63,989 bases of DNA. Origin: Chiloscyllium plagiosum. Its lineage: Eukaryota. A model generated the notes under the pieces. The model ran no database searches and was not told the origin of the DNA. It saw only the letters and a list, made by a program, of their open reading frames with translations. Position numbers and translations under genes: made by a program. The first letter of the stretch is position 1; every line of letters starts with the position of its first letter. The stretch lies in contig NC_057754.1 in NCBI RefSeq assembly GCF_004010195.1, forward strand, positions 9,049,739 through 9,113,727, given 5' to 3'. Of the stretch, positions 2,174 through 59,400 are shown piece by piece.

Positions 2174-5100
2174 ATGGCTCTTAAAATTGCTAAAGAGGTT
2201 CTGGGGTTTGAAGATGATTCCCAAATTTGCCAAGAAAGTTTAGAAAGAAAAGACCATACTTTTAGAATTAGCATAGATGTTAGAATTAGGTTTAACTAAG
2301 AACAAAAGCAAAGTTGAAAGTGTAAGGGCATTACTTAAACTGTGTCAAAGAAACAGACAAGTGCAGTAGAGTTAGAAAAACCAAAATTGCAATTGAGGAC
2401 AATGGAGTTAGAAGATAAAGAGAGAAAGAGGAAAGAGAAAGGCAGGAAGAGGAAAGAGAGAGAGAGAGGAAAAAGAAAGAGAAAGAAGGTTCTTAGCTGA
2501 GCAAAGAATAGAGAAGAAAGGGAGAAAGAGAAAAGAAAGAGAAATGGAGAGAGAGTTTGAACATCAGCGGTTAATCAGCAAAGTCAAGTTAATAGAGAAG
2601 GTAGCCTTCTTCATTTCATTTGAAAAATTGGTGAGGCAGTTGGAGTGGTCAGAGGACTTGTAGGTAATGCTAGTTCAGACTAAACTGGTAGGCAGAGTTA
2701 GTGAGGTATTTGCAGTGCTGTCAGATGAGGGATCAAGAGATTATGAAGAGGTCAAACAGGCTATTTTAAGTGCTATGAATTGGTACCAGAAGCGTATTGA
2801 CAGCGATTCAGAAACATAAAGAACGAACCAGGCCAGACTTATGTGGAATTCGAAAGAATTAAACAGAGACATTTTGATGGATGGGTTTGGGCCTTAAAAA
2901 TAGTTAAGATCTATGAGGCTGTAAGAGAGATTATTCTGTTGGAGGAGTCATAGAGGTTAAAAACTCACTTCCAGAGATGAAAAGAATTCATGTGAATGAA
3001 CAGAAAGTTCAAGAAATGAGAAGAACAGCAGAGATGGCAGATGAATATACGTTGGTACATAAGACAAAGTTTAACTTCCAGCGAGAATTTCATCCTGTGA
3101 GGGATAGAAATTGGGATAAGGGGAGATCCTACACTACGAAACAAAGAGGAGAGGACACTGGTAATTGTTTTCCACAGGTTAAAAAAGAAGATCAAGAGGG
3201 TGGAAAGGAGGTGAAAGGCCTCAGGTGTTTCCACTGCGGTAAAGTGGGACATGTAAAGTCACAGTGCTGGTCCTTAAAGAAAGGCGCTGTAGGAAAAGAT
3301 GTGGTAAAAGAGACTAAGTCAGTGGCATTAGTTAAGGTAGTAAAGGAGACCCCAAGAAAAGTTGAGGAGCTGCAGGAGAGTGCACAGCCTAGGCATGCAC
3401 TAGTTTTGGTGTTAGTACCTGATATCTATAAAGAATTTGCCTCTGTGTGTAAAGTTTACTCAGAAAGAACAGGGACAGAAGGGCAAGAAGTTATAATTTT
3501 GAATGATACAGGATCTAACCAGTCTCTAATAGTAAAAGATGACCTGTTACCCAAGAGTGTAGTAATTTGTCAGATAGATGGACAGAAATTTAACATTCCC
3601 CGATGTAAGATCAGGTTGGAGTGCCAAACTGGCGAAGACTGGTGAAGCAACAGTGGGAGTGATTGACAGAGTGTCAGTTCTAAGAATCTAATTTGTTCTT
3701 GGGAACAATTTAGCAGGATCCAAGGTGGGAGTGACACCCCTTGTCGTGGAGAAGCCAAAGGAAGACCAGGGAACTGAGAAGTTAAAAGAAAAATACCCTG
3801 GTATTTTCCCAGAATGTGTAGTAACAAGATCCCACTATCATAAGTGACAGCACAAAGCAAAAACTAAAGAGAAAGATGAAGGAGTTGAGGTTCTGTTGGC
3901 GGACACCCTGTTTGATGTAATGGTGCAGAAAAAACCTGAATGGGCAGAGGGTAAAACAGAAGTGTTTATTCCTGGAAGGCTCATGGCCTGCAACAGAAAG
4001 ACGTGACGATAAAAGATATATTAGTGGCTGTGTACTTCAAAAAGGAAGCAGAGAATATTCCTGAGGGTTATTATCTCAAATATAGAATCCTAAGATAAAA
4101 ATGGAGACCACGGCAGGTTAGTTCAGAGGAGAAATGGGCACCAGATTGTGTTGCCTATAGCATACAGACAGGAAGTGTTACATGTAGCACATGAACTACC
4201 AGTAGGAGGTCAACTTGGTGTATGGAAGACTCAGGCTAAGGTACAAAAGCATTTCTATTGGCCTGGAATGCACAAGGATGTGGTTAACTTTTGCCATTTG
4301 TGTCATACATGACAAATGGTAGGTAAGCTACAGGCGGTAATAAAACCAGCACCTTTGTTGCCAATTCCCACCTTTTGAAAAACCTTTCACGTGGGTTATG
4401 GTTGACTCTGTAGGTCCCCTCCCGAGAACTAAAAGTGGGAACCAATACTTGCTAACCATAATGGATGTGTCTATCAGATTTCTGGAGGCAATTCCGTTAC
4501 GGAACATTAAGGCAAAAAGGGTGGTAGAGGTGTTCGTAGCTTTCTTCACACAATATGGGCTACCTAGAGAGATTCAGTCAGATCAAGGGTCTAAGTTTAC
4601 CACAGGCTCTTTGAGGAAGTCATGAATAGCTTAGGTATACAGTACTTTAAATTAAGTGTGTATCATCCTGAATCCCAGGGAGCTTTAGAAAGGTGGCATC
4701 AGACCTTGAAAACCGTGTTGAGAGCATACTGTCAGGATTACCTGAACGATTGGGCTAAAGATATCCCATTTGTACTGTTTGCCATTAGAGATGCCACAAA
4801 TGGATCCACTCAGTTTACTCCCTTTGAGTTAATATTTGGACATGAAGTGAGAGGCCATTTGAAATTAATTAAATAGAAATTGACAGGACCAAAGTCGGAG
4901 ATCTCGCACTTGAATTATGTATCGGAGGTGAGGGAGAGATTAAATTGAGTAGATTAGCTAAACAGCACCTAAAAAGGGCACAGAATAGAATGAAGCAGGT
5001 GGCAGATAAAAACTCTGAAATTCAGACCTTTTCCCATGGAGGTGATGTATTAATATTGTTAGCAGTCATAGGAGAACCCTTCAAAGTCAGGTTTAGTGGT

Positions 5101-6622
5101 CCCTATCAAATTGAGAAAAAGGTGAGTCAGGTGAACTATCTGGAAAAGATGCCAGTTAGGAAAAACTGTATTGGGTGTGTTATGTGAATATGTTGAAATC
5201 TTATTATAAGAGAGAGAGAGAATTGGAGAAACAGATGTTAGTTACTGCCCTGCAGAGTGAGGAATCAAATCCAGATGTTGTGGAGTTTGATATGCTTCAA
5301 AATACGTTAAACAATGAGGAAGACCTTGAGGAATGGGATAGGTTAATAAACTATCTGTCTCAGGAGTTGAAAGGTTTGTTAGAGCTGTATGAGGACATAT
5401 ATAAGAATAAAATGGGGAGGACTAATGCTATTGTGCATGAGGTAGATGTGGACAATGCTGTTCCAATAAAACAACACCCCTACAAGCTTAATCCTTTCAA
5501 TGCCAGATAAGTCCAGAAGGAAATGGAAGCGATGCTTAACGAAGATATCATCAAACTGAGTCAGAGTGAGTGGAGTTTGTCGATCATCTTAGTTCCCAAA
5601 TCTGACAGGACTCAACGATTATGTGTGGACTATCGAAAGGTCAATGCCATAACAAAATCGGACTCATTCCCAATTCTGAGATTGGAGGACTATATAGAGA
5701 AAGTTGGATAAGCCAGTTACATCACAAAGTTGGACTAACTGTGTGGTTATTAGCAGGGACCTTTATCAGAGGAAGTGAAAGAAATTTCTGCATTTGTAAC
5801 CCCAAATGGGCGATATCAATTCAAAGTGATGCCCTTTGGTATGAAGAAAGCATCCACCACATTCCAAAGACTCATGAACAGTGTTGTGGCTGGATTATGA
5901 GAAGCGAAACTGGTAATAAACTTACAGAAAACAGAATTCACGAAAGCAGAGATGACGTTCTTTGGACATAACATCGTTCATGGAAGGTTGACCCCAAGAA
6001 ACGCAAAGACGAAGGCCATCGAGGAATTTCATGACTAACCTCGAAGAAAGAGGTGCTTCAGATTTTGGGTCTTCTACCAAAGCGAATTCTACCAGAAGTT
6101 TGTTTCAAACTTCAGCAACATAGTGGCACTATTAACAGATTGCTGAAGAAGAACCCAAAGTTTCAGTGGACAGAACAATGCCGGGGATATTTGACAATTT
6201 ACAAGCAGTATTAAACATCCCACCAGTTTTAGCTCTACCAAATGTTTTGAAACCCTTCAAAGTTGCAATTGATGCTAGCGACACAGGAGTTGGAGCTGTA
6301 CTGCCACAGGAAGATGACGGAATTGAACTGCCAGTTGGTTACTTTTCAAAGAAACTCAACAACTATCAGAGAAAATACTCTATGATTGAAAAATATTTAT
6401 TGAGTTTGGTACTGGCCTTACAACATTTTAATGTGTATGTCAGAAACAATATGTCGGAGACAGTTGTGTACATGGATCACATCCTCTTACATTCTTGGAA
6501 TGCTTTAAAGACAAGAATATGAGACTATTTTGTTAGAGTCTTATGTTCCAGACTTTTAATTTACAAATTGTACATGTTGTGGCTCATAAGAATGTGATAG
6601 CAGATGCGTTATCTTGGCTTTA
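2174..6622 (+). pseudogene. Disrupted gag-pol of the Gmr1-like element
   Basis: Gag has a SCAN-like capsid segment (~2660-2950) and the knuckle CFHCGKVGHVKSQC. Protease DTGS. Integrase VDSVGPLPRTKSGNQYLLTIMD, SDQGS, YHPESQGALERWHQTLK. RT RLCVDYRKVN, with the YxDD segment deleted near 5897. RNase H IDASDTGVGAVL. Many stops and frameshifts. Confidence 0.9.
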
Positions 6623-7642: not shown

Positions 7643-8366
7643 TCCAATTTAATAATATCCTTCCTAATGCTGGAGAGTTAGTGCTGAGGGAGCGCTGCAC
7701 TTTCAGAGCGTCAGTGCTGAGGGAGTAGGCACTGTTGGAGGATCAGTATTGATGGAGCATCCAGTTGGAACTGTGTGTAAATGGGACAGTGTTAATTAAA
7801 ACATTGTTGTTTGTCAGTTATATAAATAATTTAGCTGAGAATATAGAAGGCATGGTTAGTAAACTTGTGGATGATACCAAAATTGATGGTATAGCGGACA
7901 GTGAAGAAGGTTATCTCAGTTTTCACAGGGATCTTGATCAATTGAGTCAATGGGCTGAGGACTGGCAGATGGAGTTTAATTTGGATAAATGCAAGGTCTT
8001 GCATTCCAATTTAATAATATCTTTCCTAATGCTGGAGAGTTAGTGCTGAGGGAGCGCCGCACTTTCAGAGCGTCAGTGCTGAGGGAGTAGGCACTGTTGG
8101 AGGATCAGTATTGATGGAGCATCCAGTTGGAACTGTGTGTAAATGGGACAGTGTTAATGAAAACATTGTTGTTTGTCAGTTATATAAATAATTTAGCTGA
8201 GAATATAGAAGGCATGGTTAGTAAACTTGTGGATGATACCAAAATTGATGGTATAGCGGACAGTGAAGAAGGTTATCTCAGTTTTCAAAGGGATCTTGAT
8301 CAATTGAGTCAATGGGCTGAGGACTGGCAGATGGAGTTTAATTTGGATAAATGCAAGGTCTTGCAT
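7643..8366. repeat. Recent 362-bp tandem duplication (2 near-identical copies)
   Basis: 7643-8004 and 8005-8366 differ by only a few substitutions and give twin ORFs MELCVNGTVL... Confidence 0.92.
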
Positions 8367-9010
8367 TTTGGTAAAACAAACAAGGGCAAGACTTATATAG
8401 TTAATGGTAGGATCCTGAATAGTGCTACTAAACAGACAGACCTAGAGATTCAGGTACATAGTTCTTTGAAAGTGGAGTCACAGGTTGACAGGGTGGTTAG
8501 GGTGTCTGATACCCATACCTTCATTGCTCAGACCATTGAGTGTAGGAGGTAGGACGTCATATTGAGGTTGCGCAGGGCATTGGTTGGGCCTCTTCTGGAG
8601 TGTCCAGTTCTGGTCGCCCTGCTATAGGAGGGATATTGTTAAATTGGAGATGGTTCAGAAAAGATTTACCATGATGTTACTAGAACTGGAGGGTTTAAGT
8701 TATAAGGAGAAGCTGAGACTTTTTTTCCTGGAGTGCAGAGGTTAAGAGATGGCCTTACAGATGTTTATAAAATCATGCTGGATAGATAAGGTGAATAGCA
8801 AAAGTCTTTTCCCTAGGGTAGGGGAGTGAGGGGAAAAGATTTAAAAGGGACCTGAGGGGCAATTTTTTCAGAGAGGCTGGTTCGTGTGTGGAATGAGCTG
8901 CCAGAGGAAGTGGCAAATACAACATTTAAAAAACATTCGGACAGGTACATGAATAGGAAAAGTTTAGAGAGATATGGGCCAAACACAGGCAAGCGGGACT
9001 AGTTCAGTTT
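7800..9010 (+). mobile_element. CR1 LINE 3' portion (RT C-terminus)
   Basis: SKLVDDTKI, WAEDWQMEFNLDKCKVLHFG. Confidence 0.9.
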
Positions 9011-9167
9011 GCTGTCTGACTCTATGGCAGATTGGGATTGTCATCCACTACTTACACTGGACACCAAACCTACTGAACCATACCTTCTGGATCCCTTCTA
9101 GTTGCTCTGGGCCCTCAATTAACACTCCAGCTCCTCTGCAGTTTTACATTTGTCTCCAGCTACTCTC

Positions 9168-9369
9168 TAGGAGAAAGTGAGAACTGCAGATGCTGGAGAT
9201 CAGAGCACAGCAGATCAGACAGCATCTGAGGAACAGGAGAGTCGACGTTTCGGGTATAAACTCTTCATGCTGGTAATCCTGATGAAGGGTTTATGCCCGG
9301 AATGTCGATTCTCCTTGTCCTCGACCGCTGCCTGACCTTCTGTGCCTTTTCCAGCATTACACTCTCGGG
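9168..9369. mobile_element. Penelope-derived inverted-pair mini element
   Basis: Head-to-head copies of the PLE 3' terminus with degenerate hammerhead cores. TSD TCCAGCTACTCTC at 9155-9167 and 9370-9382. Confidence 0.75.
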
Positions 9370-9844
9370 TCCAGCTACTCTCAACTTGGTCCCAGCCTTA
9401 GATCTCCACTAGATGATCTGGGCCTCTATCTAGATTGGGTTGAGATGTATGGTCGGCATGGATGGGTTGGACCGAAGGGTCTGTTTCCATGCTGTGCATC
9501 TCTATGACCTATCTTACTCTAGAGTCCCAGCACCTGGTTTAGGAAGACTCCAGCACCCCTGTTCCTGTTTTAATACTACAGTGGACTCCAGTCCCTGGTC
9601 TGGACATAATAAGATTCCTTGGACTATCACTAATTTAACTACATTGTGTTTATTCTCCATTTCTCCGTTGAAAATACCGAAAAATTGAACAGACACAGTC
9701 TTCACACCACCCAGTTACAGTACTGAAAGTCATAAAGGTGCAGTTTGACACAATTCCAAATGAGGGAGAGTTTCAGCCAATGGGTGAAGAGTTGTGCTCA
9801 GCCTTGCCTCTGGTTCACTCTGATTGTTTGGAGGTCCAGCTGTT

Positions 9845-10143
9845 CCCGCCTGGTCCTCCAGCACCGCCCCCTCTTGTCTATTGGTCCTGCGCTGTCGTCA
9901 ATCACCAGGGCGCGCGAGGTGGCGCATGCGCAGTGCGAGTGGCGGTGCGGCGAGGTGGTTGATTTTGTTCCCGTTTTCGGGAGACGTCGTGGAGAAGTGT
10001 TGGTTTCGGAGTCTGGGGTGTGTGGAACAATGATTATCCCGAATTACTTAGGGTATGTTTCAAAGCGAAGACGGCGGTGTATCGATCGCGTGTTTGGGCG
10101 AACTCTGCAACGTGTTGGCAGTTGTTTCACTGGAAGGCCCCAG
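9845..10143 (+). promoter_or_regulatory. CpG-island promoter and putative non-coding first exon (probably of the downstream ZNF locus)
   Basis: CpG-rich, with GC box CCGCCC (~9863), ATTGG (~9880) and NRF1 motif GCGCATGCGCA (~9922). Candidate splice donor CAG|GT at 10143/10144. Confidence 0.65.
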
Positions 10144-10169
10144 GTTAACCACAGCCACCTCTTCTGGGG

Positions 10170-10420
10170 CAGGGCGCGTGCGCAACCGCCATCTTAACGT
10201 GGGTATTGTTACGACAGGGCACGCGTGCGGCCGCCATCTTAATGTGGGTATTGTTACGACAGGGCACGCGTGTGACCGCCATCTTAATGTGGGTATTGTT
10301 ACGACAGGGCGCGTGTGCGGCCGCCATCTTAATGTGGGTATTGTTACGACAGGGCACGCGTGCGGCCGCCATCTTAATGTGGGTATTGTTACGACAGGGC
10401 GCGTGTGCGGCCGCCATCTT
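10170..10420. repeat. 45-bp tandem repeat (~5.5 units), each unit carrying a YY1 motif
   Basis: CCGCCATCTT at 10186, 10231, 10276, 10321, 10366 and 10411 (exact 45-bp period). Confidence 0.95.
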
Positions 10421-11379
10421 GTAGAGGCTGAGTTCCGCAGGTTGAGAATTTGTGGAGAAGGTCACTAGACTCCAAACGTTAACCTTGCTTTTGCCTCCAT
10501 ATATGTAACCTGACCTCCTGAGCGGACCCCAGCAACTTCATTTTTTTTTGTTTTTGTAATTCAGACCATCCTTGGAAGCTGCCTGAACTGCTGTGCTCTT
10601 CCAGCACCACTAATCCAGAGGAGCTAATTCAGACCAGTTCAACTTCTTTTTGATGTATGCAATTCTGAATGGTTTGGATATGATTCTGTGAATCACATCA
10701 ACATTCAGTGCAGAAAAGGCTCATAATGCACACTCTTCCTTGCCTGAGGAAAGCTTGCAATTTCAAATGAACCTGTTGGACTATAACCCTGGTGTTTCAT
10801 TTTTGACCTTGTCCACCCCAGTCCAACTCTGGCATCTACGCATCTTCTTTCGTACAGTATAATGACCAGAACTGCACACAATGGAAAACAAAAACCAAAA
10901 GGACTGCAGGTGCTATAAATTAGGAACAAAAACAGAAAATGCTGGAAATGCTCAGCAGGTCTGGCAGCATCCACTCTGCTCTTATAATCCACTCCATTAT
11001 TGATTAGAATTAGCTTTACTGTCATGTGCTCATGTAAGTACAGTGAACAATTTACAAGTTGCTACTTATGGTGCCATTTAAGGTAGAAAAGTACCTAGGT
11101 GCAGATGCTTAAATACAGATTCTTTGGTATGAAATAGAAAAACTAAAAAAAAATTTCCAGTAGGACATTAAAGTAGAAAATAACTTATAGTCCTTCTACA
11201 CCCAGTCTATATGTAAGGGACTTGCCTCCAGTACAAACCTATTCTGTCCAGGTAAATCAGAGAAAGAAAAGGCTAATAAAGGAATTAATTTTGTATGCTG
11301 ATTTAGCTATCCTATTAACCAGTCCTGTGACCTTCAAAGATCTTTGGATGGGCACCAAAAATCCCTCGGTTTGTCTGAG

Positions 11380-16283: not shown

Positions 16284-16558
16284 AATGGCCTAGTTGGAAT
16301 GTTTCTACTTGTTGGTGAATCCATCAGAAGGCCCTGAAAGCAATTTATCAATTTCACAGGGAACTGCAGGTATTTCTTTCCTTAGTTTGTCAAATATGTA
16401 ACTTACTACTACACGAAGCAGTTGAGATTCCAGGCATTCAAAGAAATGTAAATGGAACACTTAAGAAAGGAAATTAGAAAGATACACTAAAAGATAGACC
16501 AGGTGGCCAGTTTGTTCCTTGTATATCTGAGATAACTCTTTGTAAACTCAATTTTCAG

Positions 16559-18320
16559 GCTATTAGAAGAGGAAGATTTGATGTCAAGAAAATCAAACCA
16601 AACCTCATCTCTCGATCCACTGGGCCCTGAAGATTTGCAAATCTGAAGGGAGTTAGTTCACTTTCAGGTGGAAACTGGTGAGAGGCCGCTCCTGCTATTG
16701 GAAGAGGTTGACCCAGCTGGAAAACATGATGACGCAATAGCGAGAGACTGTTCACCTGCTCAGTGTGTGGGAAGAGCTTTAGTTGTTCATCCAACCTGCA
16801 GGCACACCAAGTTAATCACATTGAGAGTCATCTTCACCACTCTGCCTCTCGGGACAGCTTTGATTCCTTTTGGGGAAGATTCCAAAGTCACATTGATGAG
16901 AGGCCGTACAGTTGCTCCCACTGTGGAAAGAGATTTAGTCTATTGTCCTGCCTCGGGGAGCACCAGCTCCTTCACATTCATGAGAGACCGTTCAGCTGCT
17001 CTCACTGTCGGGAGGTTTTCACTGGGCCAGAGGATCTCGCTGAGCATCAGCAAGTTCACACCAAGGACAGGCCATTCAGCTGCTCCCACTGTGGGAAGAG
17101 ATTCTCTCAGGCCTCCCATTGCATTAACCACCAACTGGTTCACTCGGCCAGGAAACCTTTTAAATGTTCTAAGTGTGAGAAGACGTTTAAAAGAAAGATT
17201 CATCTCTTGAACCATCAGACCACGCACATCAAGGAGAGATTGTTTTTCTGCTCTGTGTGTGACAAGAGATTCACTCATCTATTCCACCTCCTGACACACA
17301 AACGGATTCACACCGGGGAGAGGCCATTCAGCTGCTCTGCATGTGGGAAGGGATTCAATCAGGCATCTGACCTTTCAACACACAAGCATGTTCACACTGG
17401 GGAGAAACCATTTTTGTGTTCAGTGTGTGGGAGGGGATTCACTGGTGGGACCTACCTTCTGATGCACAAACGCATTCATACAGGAGAGAAGCCATTTTCT
17501 TACTCAGTGTGTGGGAATAAATTCAGTCAGTCGTCTGTCCTGCTGGCACACCAGCAGGTTCACACTGGAGAGAGGCCATTCTCCTGCTCAGTATGTGGAA
17601 AGAGTTTCCCTCTGATGTGTCACCTTTTGATTCACAAATGTGTTCACACTGGGGAGAGGATGTATGTTTGTGGCATGTGTGGGAGGGTATTTGCTTGCTT
17701 CCAACACCTGCAGAAACACCGTCGTTTTCACAACAGAAAGAAGGTGTTCACCTGCTCAGTGTGTGGGAAGGAATTCACTCTTGTCCAGATTGCAGAGACA
17801 CCAACGCATTAATGCTGGGGAGAGGCCGTTCACCTGCCCTTTGTGTGGAACAAAATTTCCTCAGCCATATGATTTGGTGAGACACAAGCAAGTTCACAAC
17901 AGGAAGAAGGTGCTTACTTGCCCTGTGTGGGAAGAAATTCGCTCAGCCGTCTAAGCTCGAAGCACACCAGCGAGTTCACACTGGGGAGAAGCCATTGCTC
18001 TGCACCGTGTGTGGGAAGCGTTTTCCTCGTTTGCCCTACCTTTGGATACATGAGCGGATTCACACTGGGGAGAGGCCGTACATCTGTCCCGTGTGTGGTC
18101 AGGGGTTTGTTTATTCGTCCCACCTTGTGAGACACCAACGTAGTCACACTGGGGAGAGGCCGTTTAAATGCTCTGTGTGGGAAGGGATTCACTGATCCAT
18201 CCCACCTGCAGACACACTACAGAGTTCATGCCAGGGAGAGGCAGCTCACCTGCTCTTTGTGCAAACAGAGATTTAGCCGGCCATCCAGCCTCCTGAAACA
18301 CCAGCAAATTCACGTGTTTG
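16559..18320 (+). pseudogene. Poly-C2H2 zinc-finger gene (~19 finger units), frameshifted; probable pseudogene
   Basis: Acceptor TTTTCAG| at 16558. A 349-aa open stretch at 16763-17812 has HTGERPF linkers. The finger array continues through frameshifts near 17780, 17935 and 18178. No in-frame ATG upstream of the array. Confidence 0.8.
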
Positions 18321-19458
18321 AGGCAGAGCTAGATTCTGTTCTTGCTACTGTGAGACAGATGAAGGACTGAACCTTTTTCCTTTTGAACTCTCGATTATAT
18401 TGTTTCTTGTCCCTTCAATTACTCACACCAACAGGTCCCAATACCTCCCAGGGTGACTCTCCTAATGTTGGTATCAAGGGCATGTAACAGTAATACTCCC
18501 AGGCATCACCAACATAAATCCCCAGCCTTACATCACATCTGCTGGACGGAGTGTGTGCTTGTGTCTGAATACTTCTGTCGCTTTGAATGTGTGAACAGAG
18601 CACCTGGTTTTAATGTAAATCAGCACAGTTTATTGAAGAGAGACGTGCAGGCTGCTGACAGTATGTTAAGCTTTCAGTTTGCACCTGTGCTGCTCTGATT
18701 TTTACCTATAGTGGACAATGTCTGAACTTTTATTCAAAAGTTTATTAGATATAGGAGCAAAATTAGGCCATTTGGCCCATTAAGTCTGCTCCACCATTCA
18801 GTCATGGTTGATATGCTCTTCACGCCCTTTTCGCTGCCTTCTTCCCATAACCCTTCAACCCATTACCAATTAAAAATCAGTCTAACTCCTCCTCAAATTT
18901 ACTCACTGTCCTAGTAGCAAATTCCACAGATTTACAGCCCTTTGAGAGAAGTAGTTTCTCTTCAACCCTTTTAAATTTGCTAACCATTATCCTAAGACTA
19001 CGACCTCTCGTCCTAGAATGCCCCACGAGGAAACCTCTGTTCCATTTTTATTTTTTCCATACTGTTTTCATCTTGAATACCTCAATTTGATCTCCCCTCA
19101 TTCTCCTAAATTCCAGAGCATGTAAGCCGAAACTGTTCAATCTCTCTCCATACAACAAAGCCCTCATTTCTGGGATTAATCTAGTGAACCTCTTCTGAAA
19201 TGCCCCCAACGCTACTACATCCTTCCTCAAATAAGAGGACCAAAACTGTGCATAGTATTCTGAGTGTGGTCTCACCAGTGCCTTGTATAGTTGCACTAAT
19301 ACTTCCATACTTTTATATTCTATTCTTTTAGCTATAAAAGCCAAGGGAGCACCCCAAAGTCTCTCTCCATTTACATAATAGATTGCATTTCCATTTTTTC
19401 TACCAAAGTGCACCACCAGACACTTATCCACATTAAACTCTGTCTGCTACATTTTTGC

Positions 19459-21204: not shown

Positions 21205-23604
21205 CAGGTGTGGGCAATTAATTCTTCCAAGGGGCCACATGAAAAACCTGAGTTGTGTTGGAGGGCCGAACCAACAATAAGTTGAACATAATTCTGCTCA
21301 GTATTAATTTTCTCCCATTGTAAAAAGTACTAAATTATATCGTTTTGCACTGAAACTTATAATCAAATAAATAAGGATATTCTGTTACAATAAAGATATG
21401 AAATTGTGGAGTAAGTTAAATATAGAAGAAATAAACAGTAAAAACAATAATTTCAGTATTTCATTGTATTTTTAACATGTTAATCTCACAAACCAATAAT
21501 GGAAAGTTGTTTCATTATTGTTCAGTATTACAAACAACAAACCACTCTATACAAAAAGCAATAAGTGTTTTTCATGTTTTTCAGTTCATTTCACTTGTTT
21601 AGTGAGAAAAATCCAGTCTGTTTTGGGCTTGAACAAATGCACTGAAATCTGGTTGAATGTCTGAGGTGGATATGCAAAGGACAGCTGAGAGGTGATCATC
21701 AGTGATCGAGGGTCTGTATTTGGATTTGTTGAACTTCATCACTGAGAATGTCTGTTCGCATATATAGGTAGATCCAAAGAGGACTAGAATCTTCGGAGCA
21801 TGCCTCGTCGTGTGGAAAGTTCTCCTCTTTGAGGGAAGAGTGAAAATCAAACAGTGAAACTGACCTAAAGTACTCTGCCAGAAGTGTGTCAGACTGCAGG
21901 TCAATGACTTCAAGCTGAACATCACTAAGTGTATTCTCCACATTGCATGTAAATGGGGAAAACATTATGTGCATTTCATTCTCAATCATTTTAAAGTCTT
22001 GAAATCGCCTTGAAAATTCACCATGCAGTGTTTCTAATATAGATGAGTACCTGTGGAGGTGATCTGCTGAAAGTGCGGCTTCCTTCAGTGTTGACAAGTG
22101 GGTGAGAATGCTGTCCTCCATTTGGTTTGAAAGAAGCTGCAACTTTCTCATAAAAGCCTTCACCAGGTTGTACATTTCGTGCACAAAAAGGCCCTTGCAC
22201 TGCAGTTTCACATTTAGTTCATTCATAAGTGCAGTCACATCAACAGCAAAACTAAGGTCTGCAATCCAGTCTGCATCTGAAAGCTGTAGAATGCCATTCC
22301 CTTTCTTCACACAGAAATCTTGAATCTCTTCTTTCAGGTCCCATACACTTTTCAGCATTTTGCCCAGGCTGAGCCACCTGACAGCTGTGTGGTAGCCTAT
22401 GTCACGATATTCAGTCTCATTTTCCTCCAAAAGTGCAACAAACTGCCTGTGATTCAAAGCTCTTGCCCTGATGAAGTCAACTATTTTAGTTACAACATCA
22501 ACCACATTGTTAATTTTTAACACTGACTTACACAATGCTTCCTGATGTATAATACAATGCAAAAATACCAATTTCTGTTCGGGGTCAATTTCTGTCACTT
22601 TATCCTGCATTCTCTTTAAGAGTCCAACATTTTTTCCTGTTAAATTTGGGACAACCATCCGTTGTCACACCTGCCAGCTTGCCCCATTTTAGTCCCAACG
22701 TGTCCAAACGTGCATTTACCTCCGTGAACAAATCATTACCAGTTGTTCCTTTCATTGACTGCATGGCTGCCAGTTCCTCCGTGATTTTAAAGTCTGTAGT
22801 TATCCCACGTATGAAGATGAGTAGCTGGGCTGTGTCATGTACGTTGCAGCTCTCATCCAAAGCCAAGGGAAAAAAAAAGTCAAAGTTGACCGCTCTGTGC
22901 TGCAGCTGAAGCTCCAGATTTCTCGCGATGTCCCCAATCCTCCTCGTTACAATGCAGCGGGAGAGGGGCACATTCTCAAATGCCTCCTTTTTCTCCGGGC
23001 ATATTAGTTCCTTAATAAACTCTCCATCAGAAAGCAGTTTACTGTTTCTGACGATTTTGTGGGATATGACCTAACTTGTCTTGACAGCTGTATGTCTGGA
23101 TATGTGAAGTTTCGTAAAAAGTCTTTGCTGGTTATGCAGCTTAGCGAGCAAAGCATCCGACTCCCTTACCCGCTCTTGATCAGACAAGTTGTACTTCTCA
23201 GCATGTTTGGTCACATTGTGGCGATTCAAATTATTATCCTTGAACACAGTGACCTGTGCACCACAAACCAAACACACGGCTTTATCTCCGATTTCTGTAA
23301 ATAAATATCTCGCAGTCCATGTCTTGTTAAAAACGCGGCATTCCGTATCGACGTTCCTTTTTTTGGCGTGAGCTGACATTTTGAGGGCTAGCCACCAAGC
23401 ATCACTTTTAGCTGTTCATGCATGTGCGTCCATACGCAAATAAAAAAAGCATCCTTTTCAAAACAAAAGCAACACAGTTGTATTCCATGCATAGCGTAAA
23501 TACTTTTTCATTTATGTTCTAATTTAAGATTGACCTCATGCGGGTCGGACAGGAACGACCAAAGAGCCGCATATGGCCCGCTGGCCATAAAATGCCCAGG
23601 ATTA
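21205..23604 (-). mobile_element. hAT DNA transposon (Charlie/SPIN/OC1-Buster group)
   Basis: 8-bp TSD CCCTAGAG at 21197-21204 and 23605-23612. Imperfect TIRs CAGGTGTGGGCAAT / AATGCCCAGGATTA. Confidence 0.9.
21599..23379 (-). pseudogene. Frameshifted hAT transposase (GTF2IRD2/SPIN-like)
   Basis: KKRNVDTECRVFN..CLVC, ALDES...TAQLLIF, TTDG, HCIIHQEAL, VRWLS, FGSTYICEQTFS. Spread over 4 or more frames. Confidence 0.92.
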
Positions 23605-32922: not shown

Positions 32923-33056
32923 NNNNNNNNNNNNNNNNNNNNNNNNNNNNNNNNNNNNNNNNNNNNNNNNNNNNNNNNNNNNNNNNNNNNNNNNNNNNNN
33001 NNNNNNNNNNNNNNNNNNNNNNNNNNNNNNNNNNNNNNNNNNNNNNNNNNNNNNNN
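32923..33056. other. Assembly gap (134 N)
   Basis: Run of N. Confidence 1.
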
Positions 33057-33275
33057 TGCTGAGAGCTGCGGGCTCCCTTCCCTTTAGTCATTTTAACTTA
33101 GGATAAAGTTGCTTAAATGTAATATTAAACCACTAATTCAGTTACTAAACTATTATAAATGATTTATAAATGATTTGGTGAGATTGATAGGGGGTAGGTG
33201 ACCCACTGTGCCCAGGTCTTGGGAGGAGCACTATAGACTCAGTCTTACTGGGTCGCCGCCATCTTGGATCCCCCT
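32923..33275 (-). mobile_element. L1-type LINE: 5' end visible, body lost in the gap
   Basis: Minus strand begins AGGGGGATCCAAGATGGCGGCG (YY1 site, L1-like 5' end). 14-bp TSD TCCCGACGCCTTTT at 32909-32922 and 33276-33289, at a TTTT/AA target. Confidence 0.75.
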
Positions 33276-34569: not shown

Positions 34570-34642
34570 GGGCCAGTGGCGCAATGGATAACGCGTCTGA
34601 CTACGGATCAGAAGATTGTAGGTTCGACTCCTACCTGGCTCG
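34570..34642 (+). tRNA. tRNA-Arg-ACG: tRNA-Arg(ACG)
   Basis: GGGCCAGTGGCGCAATGGATAACGCGTCTGACTACGGATCAGAAGATTGTAGGTTCGACTCCTACCTGGCTCG folds as a full cloverleaf. TTTT terminator at 34650-34653. Confidence 0.97.
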
Positions 34643-38306: not shown

Positions 38307-39197
38307 TCATTGCAGCTTCTTGTGAACTCGTCTGTGACTCAGCAGGTGCGATGACGTAGTGAATCTCTTCCCACATTCGAAACAACTGAATGGTTTCTCC
38401 CCAGTGTGAACCCGCTGGTGAGTCAGCAAGTCAGATGACTGACTGAATCTCTTCCCACACTCAGAGCAGGTGAAGGGTCGCTCCCTGGTGTGAACCCGTT
38501 GGTGGGTGAACAGCTGAGATGACTGACTGAATCCCTTTCCGCACTCCGAGCAGATGAATGGCCTCTCTCCAGTGTGAATGCGCTGGTGTTTGGTCAGGTC
38601 AAATGACAGCCAGAACCCAGTCCCACAGTGAGAACACCTGAAGGGTCTCTCGTCAGTGTGAACACGTTGATGGGACATCAGCTCCCCAGAACTTTTATAG
38701 CACTTCTCACAGTCTGGGCATTTATAAGGTCTTTCCCCAGTGTGAACTCGCTCATGTCTTAGCACGTGGGATAACTGAGTGAACCCCTTCCCACACATGG
38801 AACAGATGAATGGCCTTTCCCCAGTGTGAATTCGCTGATGCACGGTGAGCTGAGATGATTGCCTGAACCCAGTCCCACAGTAAGAGCACCTGAAGGGTCT
38901 CTCATTGGTGTGAACGCGTTGATGAAACATCAGGTCCCCAGAGCGTTTGTAACATTTTTCGCAGTCTGTGCATTTGAACGGTCTCTCGCCAGTGTGAACC
39001 CGCTGGTGTGTCAGCAGACTGGATGACTGAGTGAATCCTTTCCCACATATCGAGCAGGTTAATGGTCTCTGCTCTCTGTGAGCGTAGTGATGAGTGTCCA
39101 GCTCAGATTGGTAACTGAATCCCTCCCTGCCAAAACCACACTTGAACAGTTGATCCTCAGTATGACTGTATTGGTGAACAGAGCTATTTTCTTCCAT
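38307..39197 (-). CDS. KRAB-less C2H2 zinc-finger protein (296 aa; 9 intact fingers plus 1 degenerate)
   Basis: Uninterrupted ORF from ATG at 39197 (MEENSS...) to TGA, with HTGERPF linkers. Polypyrimidine tract and CAG acceptor at 39303 upstream. Confidence 0.9.
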
Positions 39198-39699
39198 GTT
39201 CAAAATTCAATATCATTTAAAGTTAGGAGAAACTGAGTTTCTCTGAAATATCCTGAGGTTCGGTTAACATTAGCTGAGCACAAATTTTCCCTGTTTAAAA
39301 TCCTGTAAAATTGACAAACACACAAAAGAAAAGAGTGAGCGGGAACCCACCAAAACAAAAGGCACATTGTGAAATGGAGCTGAACGAATCTGATCGTTTG
39401 TGGGACTGGCTTAAGGCAAAATAAAATCACCGTACAAGCTGCTGAATTGTCAGAAAAGAACAACTGTGTCACTCTTGCCTTTTAGGAAAGAAAAATTGGT
39501 CTGGATCTACAGAAGATGCTGACCTTTATGGGACAGGAGAGAGTGAGGGAGAAACAGCTAGGAGAAGCAGGGGGTGCGGGGAGGCAAACTCTCTCTCTCT
39601 ACAATTTGATCGGAAGTTTAAAAGAATCTCAGAGAGCACCGATCTTCTTCATCAAGGATAAAAGGTGACAGGTGAATGTGAATATGGTCAGCTCCTGAC

Positions 39700-44039: not shown

Positions 44040-44580
44040 GGCAAGCGTTCATACTGCGCATACTCCAAACACCGAAGGCTATTACGTCCATTCCTACGCG
44101 CAGCGACTCAGTCGACTGAAAGTTAGCTCCGGGCCAATAGGGAGGCAGAGGGCGGGGCCGGAGGACCGAGGGGCGGGGCCTGAGCGCAGCGGGGGGCGGA
44201 GCCGGAGGACCGAGCGAAAGGGCCAGTGGCCCGAGAAGGGCACGTGTGGTCTTTCGACCAATCAGAGTGAGCGTGTCGCAAGGTCACGCTGCGATTGGAA
44301 CATGCGCAATGAGGATCGTGAGACGGCGGTTTCGCAGGAGTGTAAGCGGGCGAACGGTGGGAGAGGAAAAGAACGGCCGGGGAATAGCGATACCTTTGAT
44401 ACGCCTCATAAAGGCTCTGAAAGTCGAGGAAGAACCTACCTGTGCCGAACTTGGTCGAAGTCGTGCTATATTTGTGGGCATCCTCCGTCGCCAAGCGCGG
44501 GTGCCTGGTGGCCATGTTGATCGGGGGTAAGCCGCAGAGCTGCGCATGCGCGGCCCTCTTGGGAAGTGGGAAGGGTTCGT
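44040..44580. promoter_or_regulatory. CpG-island (probably bidirectional) promoter
   Basis: Two GGGGCGGGGCC-type GC boxes (~44149, ~44170), CCAAT/ATTGG at ~44134, ~44259 and ~44294, and NRF1 TGCGCATGCGC at 44541. Confidence 0.7.
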
Positions 44581-53789: not shown

Positions 53790-54010
53790 CCCTTGTCAAA
53801 GGTTCAGCCCAGAAACACACAGACACAGTCACACTGGGGAGAAACCATGGAAATGTAGGGTCTGTGGGAAGGAATTCAGTTATGCATCTGGGTTGGAACA
53901 TCCCCTACACGCACATAGGGATAGGCCTTTTGATGGGTCAGTGGAGGGATTCACTTGGTCTTCGAAACTCCAAACATGCCAGAGGGTTCATACTAGAGAG
54001 AAACAATGAC
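53790..54010 (+). pseudogene. Short C2H2 zinc-finger relic
   Basis: HRHSHTGEKPWKCRVCGKEFSY followed by degenerate fingers. Confidence 0.75.
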
Positions 54011-54715
54011 AGAGCTTTAAAATGCAGCTCTGTTTTTATAACCTCAGTGAGAATCAGAGACAAACTCTGGGTCTAGAAACCCATGAATGTTTTGAGATGA
54101 GACTTTGGGTTCATGGACTCCGAGGCAGCAATGGCTGTTGTGGAGCTTAAACTGCTTTCTGATATCTGCGGGGTCCTTTCAATCCTTATTCTAAACAATA
54201 ACGTTGATGGTTGCAGTTGAATGGACAGACTCCAAGGCATGATAGTTGCTGGTAAAAAAAAACTGTGAGGATGTTTCTGTCGAGGGTTTATTTCTTGAAT
54301 AATCAGGATCATAATGTACAATAATTATGATTCTATTATATTAATAGTCAGGCTCCACTGTTCAGACTCTAAGTATGTTCATCATGAATTGCCTCTTGCA
54401 TACAGATTTGAAATCCTATAAGATTCTGGATACTGATATGTGAAGAATCAGATAACTATGACATTAATATTCTGGTTCCTATCACATCAACAATCAGGGT
54501 CCAATTAATTATGCAGCTCCTATTGCATTCCCAATCAGTTGTCTATTCCAGCTGTACTCAGAAATGTTCAGCAATCAGGAAGTTGTATGTCAAAAATCCA
54601 CACACTTCAGTTAATAATCAGAACCCTAATACATCATTTAATTAGGATTCTATTACATTCAAGAGATTTGATGTTTTGTCAATAATCCTTATCGTAAAAG
54701 ATGAATAATCAGAGT

Positions 54716-58279: not shown

Positions 58280-58900
58280 TAATCACTAATGGACTTGTTG
58301 GTGTCTCTGTAGATGGGATGGCTGAGTGAATTCCATCCCACACACAGCAAGAAAATGGCCTCTCCACAGTGTGAACTTGCTGATGTGTCAGCAATTGGGA
58401 TGACCAAGGGAATCTCTTCCCACACACCGAGCAGGTGAAAGGGCTTCTGCCCACCGTGGGTGCATTGGTATTCTTTGAGGGCCATTGACTGCTTGAAATT
58501 CTTTCCACAGGAAGTATAGTGGAATGGATTCTCCTTCATGTGAAAATGGTGGTGCGACTAGAGGGCGAGTTACTGAGAGAATCCCGTCTGACACACAAAG
58601 CAAGTGAACAGTTTATGCCTGTGTGACTTTGCTTGTGTTCACTGAGCGTGTCTGAAGACCTAAAAGCTCTGTCCACAGGTTGTGCAGCTGAATGGCTTCT
58701 CCTCGGTGTGAACAAAGGCTGGATGACCAAGCAAATCCCTTCCCACACAAAATGCAGGTGAATGGCCTCTCCCCAGTGTGAATGTGCCAATGGATATCCA
58801 GCTGGGATGAGTAATGAAATCCTTTCCCACAATCTTCACATTTCCACGGTTTCTCCATGGTGCTGGTATCCTCGTGTCTCTCCAGGTTGAATGATCAATT
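58280..58900 (-). pseudogene. C2H2 zinc-finger pseudogene
   Basis: MEKPWKCEDCGKGF...HTGERPFTCILCGKGF, followed by multiple frameshifts and lost ligands. Confidence 0.85.
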
Positions 58901-59164
58901 GAAGCCTCCCCGAAACACACAAGATCTGTACAGTTTATTGTTTATTCACACGTGTAAATCCACCGCTTAATGCTTTACAAAAAGTCACTCCTATCAGTCC
59001 AGGATGGGAATTCTGAACGGAGAATTGCAGTTCCCCTGGGACACTGTTTCCTGGTGTCCCCTCCTCCCCGTGCTGAAATACAAATAAACTGTGGAATAAT
59101 TCTTCACTTGCTGGAGACAATCAGATTACTTCTGGAAATAAACACCCCTCAGGCTGCAGCTCCA

Positions 59165-59400
59165 GTCAAGCATTTGGCTGCGCATGTGCCATAGGGATTG
59201 GCGCTTCATGGCAGCAATGCGCATGCTCTGGATACCGAATGACTGGCGGCAGGTCTGCACCAATAGCAACAGGGGGCGGTACAGGAGACCGGGTCTTGAA
59301 CGGACGTTCCTCCAACCAATCGGAGCGGGCGGGGCCAGTCGTGATTGGCGCATGGGCAGTGTGGAGGGTTGCTGGACCCGGAAGGAGGAAGTGCAAAGTC
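59165..59400. promoter_or_regulatory. Compact bidirectional ZNF-type promoter
   Basis: NRF1-like TGCGCATG (twice), CCAAT/ATTGG (four times), GC boxes and ETS CCGGAAG. Sits between a minus-strand ZNF relic and a plus-strand exon-intron-exon start. Confidence 0.65.

Follow-up and report, generated by a model that had tools for sequence, protein, structure and literature searches.

A single-locus shark minisatellite that multiplies a predicted YY1 site behind a putative zinc-finger-cluster promoter

Directly behind the CpG-island promoter module of a C2H2 zinc-finger (ZNF) gene cluster, a shark genome carries a minisatellite: head-to-tail 45-bp units at one locus, each bearing a perfect match to the YY1 recognition word, CCGCCATCTT. 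We lean, with a little more belief than doubt, towards a single-locus minisatellite, about 250 to 490 bp behind a standard ZNF-cluster promoter, that at most tunes expression. The array lies in the window, by which we mean the whole stretch of 63,989 nucleotides analyzed here, and all positions are counted from its first letter. A sequence-only reading of the same DNA had described the array and its setting in the ZNF cluster and had proposed three functions for it, namely, a methylation switch, a looping anchor, and an expression tuner. Its observations are partly confirmed by what follows and its interpretation is partly supported; among the three functions, just the expression tuner appears plausible on analysis. 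Our searches of the main texts of the openly licensed literature turned up no shark array of this kind.

Results

Structure of the array. Tandem Repeats Finder placed the array at 10186-10420, with a 45-bp period, 5.2 copies, 94% matches, and no indels, and a motif count found six exact CCGCCATCTT cores on one strand, starting at 10186, 10231, 10276, 10321, 10366, and 10411 (Table 1). The tandem array with six perfect YY1 cores that had been claimed from the letters is thus confirmed by repeat caller and motif count alike. Each full unit has the YY1 core in columns 1 to 10, a middle block with the donor-like GTGGGT, and, in columns 34 to 44, an 11-bp alternating purine-pyrimidine tract that holds most of the variation. 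Successive full units contain 6, 4, 5, 5, and 5 CpGs, which agrees with the earlier figure of about five per unit, and the core holds a CpG in every copy. The observed/expected CpG ratio is 1.38 in the array versus 0.33 in the whole window.

Table 1. Positions and strands of the features discussed, with the basis for each.
Feature	Position	Strand	Basis
Core promoter module (GC-box-like and inverted CCAAT words)	9818..9904	+	Common to other ZNF promoters
NRF1 palindrome	9922..9931	.	Motif scan; unchanged among listed organism-B changes
Candidate first exon, 3' end uncertain	9949..10143	+	Position behind module; donors after 10052 and 10143
Leading partial unit, diverged	10170..10185	+	Extends array leftward; minus-strand NRF1-type word
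Five full 45-bp units	10186..10410	+	Repeat calling, column comparison, motif count
Sixth YY1 core	10411..10420	+	Periodicity ends on the core's last letter
Remnant of high-copy interspersed repeat, outside the array	10456..10491	.	Many contigs loose-ended at either edge (X2, X9, X18)
Nearest same-strand C2H2 zinc-finger exon	16559..18370	+	Acceptor context; Pfam zf-C2H2, zf-H2C2_2

Elsewhere in the 64-kb window, CCGCCATCTT matches once, at 33256, and in shuffled windows it occurs 0.16 times on average, with none of 100 shuffles reaching seven. Because the six cores are copies of one amplification, they are not six independent sites, and the fair test is the chance that a single 45-bp piece holds the word. 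By composition this chance is about 4 in 10,000, a value to be read with the caveats that YY1 words are frequent behind vertebrate promoters (reported in PMC11269187) and that the scan covers many motifs and loci. Judged on its sequence, the YY1 word in the unit is probably a genuine predicted site. The lone match at 33256-33265 is separated by 200 bp from an assembly gap of 134 N (32923-33056), and a short sequence that precedes the gap recurs right after the matching word.

Three other descriptions of the unit were considered and rejected. The open frames that run through the array on either strand follow simply from a period divisible by three, and a coding repeat is incompatible with the frame breaks introduced by a 5-letter loss in unit 1 of organism B and by a 2-letter gain in run X2 (both described below). 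Helical phasing of the cores fails in that 45 bp corresponds to 4.3 turns, which puts the cores out of phase. For a composite NRF1-YY1 unit, a good NRF1 word is present in the leading partial unit only and is absent in organism B.

Single locus or dispersed repeat. We compared four of 24 sequencing runs with positions 9510-10568 at 80% likeness, reading 84% of DNA run X2 (organism A) and 61% of DNA run X9 (organism B); the pieces and differences given here are those listed in that comparison. Multi-copy contigs on the 45-bp unit were absent among the listed X2 and X9 pieces, and the 64-kb window contains no second copy of the unit. Depth on the array in the two DNA runs fits about five single-copy depths, with the highest X2 bin accounted for by about five local copies and array bins in X9 reaching at most 21 against a single-copy depth of 7. 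The promoter module and the repeat remnant beside the array did draw multi-copy contigs, so the method would have seen a family of units at 80% likeness, the level below which older copies would escape it. For the module, extra organism-B contigs on 9849-9894 had depths of 41, 96, and 192 against about 7.7, equivalent to roughly 40 copies. On the evidence of single-locus depth, at 80% likeness in the parts of X2 and X9 read, and the lack of copies in the window, we reject the unit as a dispersed repeat or transposon piece; it appears to be single-locus, and not the generic genome-wide minisatellite or transposable-element fragment against which the sequence-only reading had warned.

The array in another individual and in a related species. 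Over the promoter, X2 differs from the window at 2 of 706 letters. Its contigs fragment within the array, as do those of X9, and the gaps in X2 contig cover at 10273-10280 and 10429-10455 carry no weight as evidence. One X2 piece, at depth 16.8, has GT inserted behind 10359 and so holds a 47-bp unit that is absent from the window; unit variants are therefore present between individuals. Read by eye, removal of one dinucleotide from the 47-bp form yields either of the two main spacer types of the window, a pattern suggestive of slippage by 2 letters in the tract or of exchange out of register there. A 2-letter gap is also present in a piece from run X18 over 10360-10512. The depths of the X2 spacer types (60 and 30.4, against 17.5 for single copy) correspond to about 5.2 units, like the window, where the ratios are rough, depth is no copy number, and short contigs cannot phase alleles.

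Where the sequence-only reading had suggested a look at related species, we find the array in one relative. Over 714 letters, the X9 contig at 9540-10286 shows 39 substitutions and 33 gap letters relative to the window, or about 5.5% divergence. Of the contigs at the array, the first and second have a common end column and the second and third a common start column; one 45-letter piece at depth 13.3 (versus 6 to 8) joins these three and, read by hand as being passed twice, would give organism B about four units and five cores. Sixteen letters are missing at 10171, just ahead of the first core, and with them the one good NRF1-type word; the first core persists beside this loss; five further letters are lost in unit 1. 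The last spacer of organism B shows six listed differences from the last spacer of the window and has letters of its own, and its inner units align best to window unit 2, with two to three differences. Its last core (at 10411-10420) has no listed change and sits well inside the contig; mismatch counts suggest that cores 3 and 4 are intact, and cores 1 and 2 are not judgeable among the differences listed. Being common to both species, the array would predate their split, and within each species the units appear homogenized, as concerted evolution would give. In run X17 (organism C), the piece over 9537-9704 is identical to the window, and organism B differs there at three places; organism C may be the same or a very close species, or the piece may be carried-over DNA.

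Core constancy and selection. The core had been described as invariant amid varying neighbors, an impression that does not survive a column count. The five full units differ from one another at just 5 of 45 columns (13, 36, 39, 43, and 45), three of them inside the purine-pyrimidine tract and one adjoining it. The invariant run that contains the core spans 12 columns, and columns 14 to 35 form an invariant run of 22; a spacer block is thus equally invariant, and the chance that a randomly placed block of 10 columns shows no variation is P=0.27. On this value we reject core invariance as proof of selection. The variation is a mutable patch within an otherwise uniform unit.

Across species, no core change was found in the nine judgeable copies (six of six in the window and three of five in organism B). 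None of four events outside the slippery tract falls in a core (P=0.26), nor does any of about 10 events overall (P=0.08), with event counts made by hand, non-independent, and chosen after the fact. Core constancy across species is accordingly not significant (P 0.08-0.26). A single 10-mer remains unchanged 60% of the time at about 5 to 5.5% divergence. Moreover, units that are homogenized do not offer independent tests of selection on their cores, and the only relative, about 5.5% diverged, is too close to tell selection from inheritance. The last unit of organism B has changes at 6 of 14 spacer positions versus 0 of 10 core positions, a contrast that is overstated because the B units align best to window unit 2.

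These counts bear on the idea that the array is a homotypic YY1 cluster in which selection keeps the number of intact cores for promoter output or loop anchoring, which we regard as unlikely, if still deserving of some weight. The unchanged cores, the first core kept beside the organism-B deletion, and the coincidence of the right array edge with the end of a core are hints that lean towards selection. Unit number is also similar across samples (5 in the window, about 5 in X2, and about 4 in X9), the promoter module is conserved (see below), and there is a nonmammalian precedent in the first intron of the YY1 gene, where five sites within 100 bp are reported to be required in the zebrafish promoter (PMC2743690). 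Set against this idea are the P values above, the two organism-B cores that could not be judged, the non-independence of homogenized units, the ease with which a 10-mer stays unchanged at this divergence, and a likely target exon that is broken. A more specific form, a selected, non-imprinted YY1 dosage element built independently in sharks, with cores kept, spacers reshaped, and unit number and methylation setting transcript level, seems to us more doubtful again.

Promoter module and candidate first exon. The module at 9818-9904 matches 59240-59325 at 74% over 88 bp (E 1e-6) and 44125-44167 at 77% over 43 bp (E 0.025). The elements claimed upstream of the array fared unequally: the NRF1 palindrome was recovered by motif scan, and the GC-box-like and inverted CCAAT words, visible by eye at about 9864-9882, were missed by strict patterns, with the sole strict CCAAT match lying at 9775. 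The start site is placed by the promoter module and so remains approximate, with the NRF1 palindrome likely to lie just upstream of the start region. Listed organism-B changes number 2 in 133 bp (9816-9948) versus 28 in the remaining 463 bp (Fisher P=0.04), and on this sequence comparison the upstream promoter module does look constrained. Each paralogous module is directed at a ZNF exon on its own strand, which supports plus-strand firing of 9818-9904 towards the exon with its acceptor at 16558. The core word CCGCCATCTT is absent from both paralogous modules (44125-44167 and 59240-59325). The array lies where the earlier reading had put it, directly behind this module, in an island with a CpG ratio near or above 1.

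The first-exon donor proposed at 10143 (CAG|GTTAAC) holds up less well, since it is weak and falls below the 5-of-7 cut, whereas donors scoring 5 of 7 occur at 10053, at 10461, and inside each of the five full units. With better alternatives available, the first exon is a guess. From two runs guessed to be RNA came a single piece each, 168 letters long and unspliced at 9537-9704 in X17, and 155 letters long with depth 2.3 at 10360-10512 in X18; either may be DNA, they contain no splice joints and do not cover the candidate exon, and they speak neither for nor against transcription.

Several further features of the promoter surroundings were recorded. Positions 9949-10103, which make up most of the candidate first exon, carry 18 listed organism-B changes in 155 letters, plus three deletions (11.6%, versus 3.7% upstream); this is about three times the upstream rate and is rich in G>A. 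The CpG-rich modules at 44125-44551 and 59200-59345 are related to 9818-9904 and face minus-strand ZNF sequence, and the former, in which an extra NRF1 palindrome starts at 44542, is possibly bidirectional. Over 9000-11000, GC and AT skew flip sign at the promoter, purine rich to the left and pyrimidine rich to the right, probably owing to the orientation of flanking retroelements.

Every core also reads on the minus strand as AAGATGGCGG, the orientation of the YY1 word that is usual just behind start sites. YY1 is reported to be strongly strand biased and to act on starts within about 50 bp (PMC11160661), a bias that leaves room for an array of antisense initiators, whose minus-strand cores would fire convergent transcripts that damp or diversify promoter output. 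The insertion consensus of PMC13017510 is written in the AAGATGGC direction, and every core gives a minus-strand ATG with a single open frame of 15 to 90 codons. We nevertheless consider such initiators improbable: the Peg3 and L1 Tf sites have the GCCAT direction seen here, yet are described as activating their own genes (PMC2615030; PMC11602158), most motifs are reported to be active in both orientations (PMC13017510), and the minus-side flank of the array shows no upstream activator words by eye or by pattern scan.

Likely target gene and neighborhood. The exon at 16559-18370 is, from its position and strand, the likely target of the upstream promoter. Its fingers are scattered over three frames with at least four frame changes, and each of the three frames has stops ahead of the first finger. 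In the present assembly it would be a pseudogene, where the frameshifts could be assembly errors.

The state of this exon is the main argument for a neutral repeat in the fading promoter of a ZNF pseudogene, where YY1 might bind without effect. The elevated divergence of 9949-10103 relative to upstream sequence points the same way, and some germline methylation would fit two further counts: of the five columns that vary in the window, four show C/T or G/A differences at CpG, and four of the six listed changes in the last spacer of organism B gain or lose a CpG. Opposed to these are the CpG ratio of the island, which has not decayed, the alteration in organism B of just 4 of 29 upstream CpGs, the core module as the least changed part, and the chance that the frameshifts are errors of assembly. 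We judge this neutral reading to be improbable, though marginally less so than antisense initiation.

Elsewhere in the cluster, an intact C2H2 zinc-finger frame of 299 codons lies at 38307-39206 (minus strand), broken ZNF fragments lie at 53803-54084 (plus) and 58289-58951 (minus), and a tRNA-Arg(ACG) gene at 34570-34642 (plus) sits in a CpG-rich patch. A 362-bp tandem duplication at 7643-8367, 98% identical, is a recent event or an assembly artifact. Open-frame pieces at 2917-6522 (plus), with a zinc knuckle and polymerase parts, look by eye like an LTR retrotransposon, and those at 21599-23070 (minus) resemble a hAT-type transposase, again by eye.

Discussion

Relation to known YY1 clusters and promoter repeats. 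With six YY1 words in 235 bp, the array satisfies the ECMFinder rule of at least three cgCCATntt words per 500 bp near a promoter (less than 5 kb from a start, which is here placed by the promoter module) as described in PMC2665242. The 31 loci reported there persist in human, mouse, and cow, over half without conservation of surrounding sequence, and 6 of 7 tested clusters were bound in vivo; the shark array has near-identical units, is seen in one close relative, and consists of predicted sites. The ECMFinder gene list may include zinc-finger genes (PMC2665242).

The first intron of the YY1 gene offers another dense YY1 cluster behind a nonmammalian promoter, unrelated to imprinting. Its five sites are described as having two opposed orientations, unconserved spacers, deep conservation, and a proven need (PMC2743690), whereas the shark array has one orientation, homogeneous units, and shallow conservation. 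Mouse L1 Tf 5'UTR monomers share with the array one GCCATCTT-type YY1 word per tandem unit, a methylation-sensitive CpG, and variable unit number, but form the promoter of a dispersed retrotransposon (PMC11602158), whereas the shark unit is 45 bp long, single-locus, and placed behind a separate promoter. The array likewise resembles expression-affecting promoter-proximal variable-number tandem repeats (VNTRs) in having a GC-rich tandem unit near a promoter, with variants between individuals; those VNTRs are reported to alter neighboring expression (PMC8024321, PMC10234305, PMC8096271), an effect that is hypothetical for the shark array.

The sequence-only reading had drawn an analogy with the first-intron array of the mammalian Peg3 differentially methylated region (DMR), which also has same-orientation YY1 words in tandem repeats behind a C2H2 CpG-island promoter (PMC4196374, PMC2615030). 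Imprinting control regions are described as having four to ten YY1 sites in one orientation (PMC5526879), and the six cores on one strand agree with this; the neighboring gene is C2H2, and each core holds the CpG at which methylation is reported, for L1 Tf, to weaken YY1 binding by a factor of 8 or more (PMC11602158). The likeness fails at the next feature, free divergence of spacers and spacing around preserved sites: the Peg3 array has about 10 sites scattered irregularly over 2.5 kb (PMC2615030), whereas the shark array keeps an exact 45-bp period at 94% identity. The Peg3-DMR further combines maternal methylation, imprinting, and an intact gene, as against a broken exon and a putative intron position here.

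A Peg3-like switch of imprinting or allele-specific methylation, convergent or ancestral, is in our view very improbable, more so than the other alternatives weighed above. Mutating seven Peg3 YY1 sites is reported to leave imprinting and methylation intact and to alter expression level only, so that these sites are dispensable for imprinting (PMC5526879), and they are described as not being enhancer blockers (PMC2615030). Peg3 is one of the 31 conserved mammalian YY1 clusters found by the ECMFinder rule; Psmb5, Prkcsh, and other ordinary genes are among the rest (PMC2665242). Parthenogenesis, which imprinting blocks in mammals, is reported to yield viable young in sharks (PMC5238396), and parent-specific methylation at the array is therefore unlikely. 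We found no sequence link to Peg3 beyond the zinc fingers; nothing supports common ancestry, and we do not count the array among Peg3-type imprinting control regions.

A probable promoter minisatellite built on a predicted YY1 site. Under the single-locus minisatellite reading that we favor, one 45-bp segment with one perfect YY1 word was tandemly amplified; the array would predate the species split, with unequal exchange and slippage by 2 letters as the likely means of turnover, processes that would leave units closer within a species than between species. While the island is unmethylated, YY1 would, on vertebrate data, be expected to bind the cores, and several sites in the same orientation could give a modest, number-dependent boost to the upstream promoter or fine-tune it, with copy number a by-product of repeat turnover. 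The YY1 DNA-binding domain is reported to be 66 to 100% similar from insects to human (PMC1904287), and zebrafish YY1 sites to function in mouse cells (PMC2743690). In human assays, YY1 is described as activating from downstream positions (PMC11269187; PMC13017510). Dependence on site number is reported for YY1 in Peg3 reporters and for activation at the Peg3-DMR (PMC2615030; PMC4196374), and the tandem-monomer YY1 sites of mouse L1 Tf are reported to be synergistic and methylation sensitive (PMC11602158). Some repression is reported beyond the preferred downstream zone of YY1 (PMC13017510), where the array cores lie, so an effect of either sign is possible.

The array is a tidy case of transcription-factor sites multiplied by a minisatellite at a promoter, and there are signs of turnover within and between two shark-type genomes. 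Were it the dosage element outlined above, it would serve as a natural, non-imprinted model of how tandem YY1 arrays function. If the cores prove to be bound and selected, Peg3-like rows of YY1 sites would arise without imprinting, and the shark array would offer a regular, editable series (zero to six identical units) for the effects of YY1 site number, orientation, and methylation.
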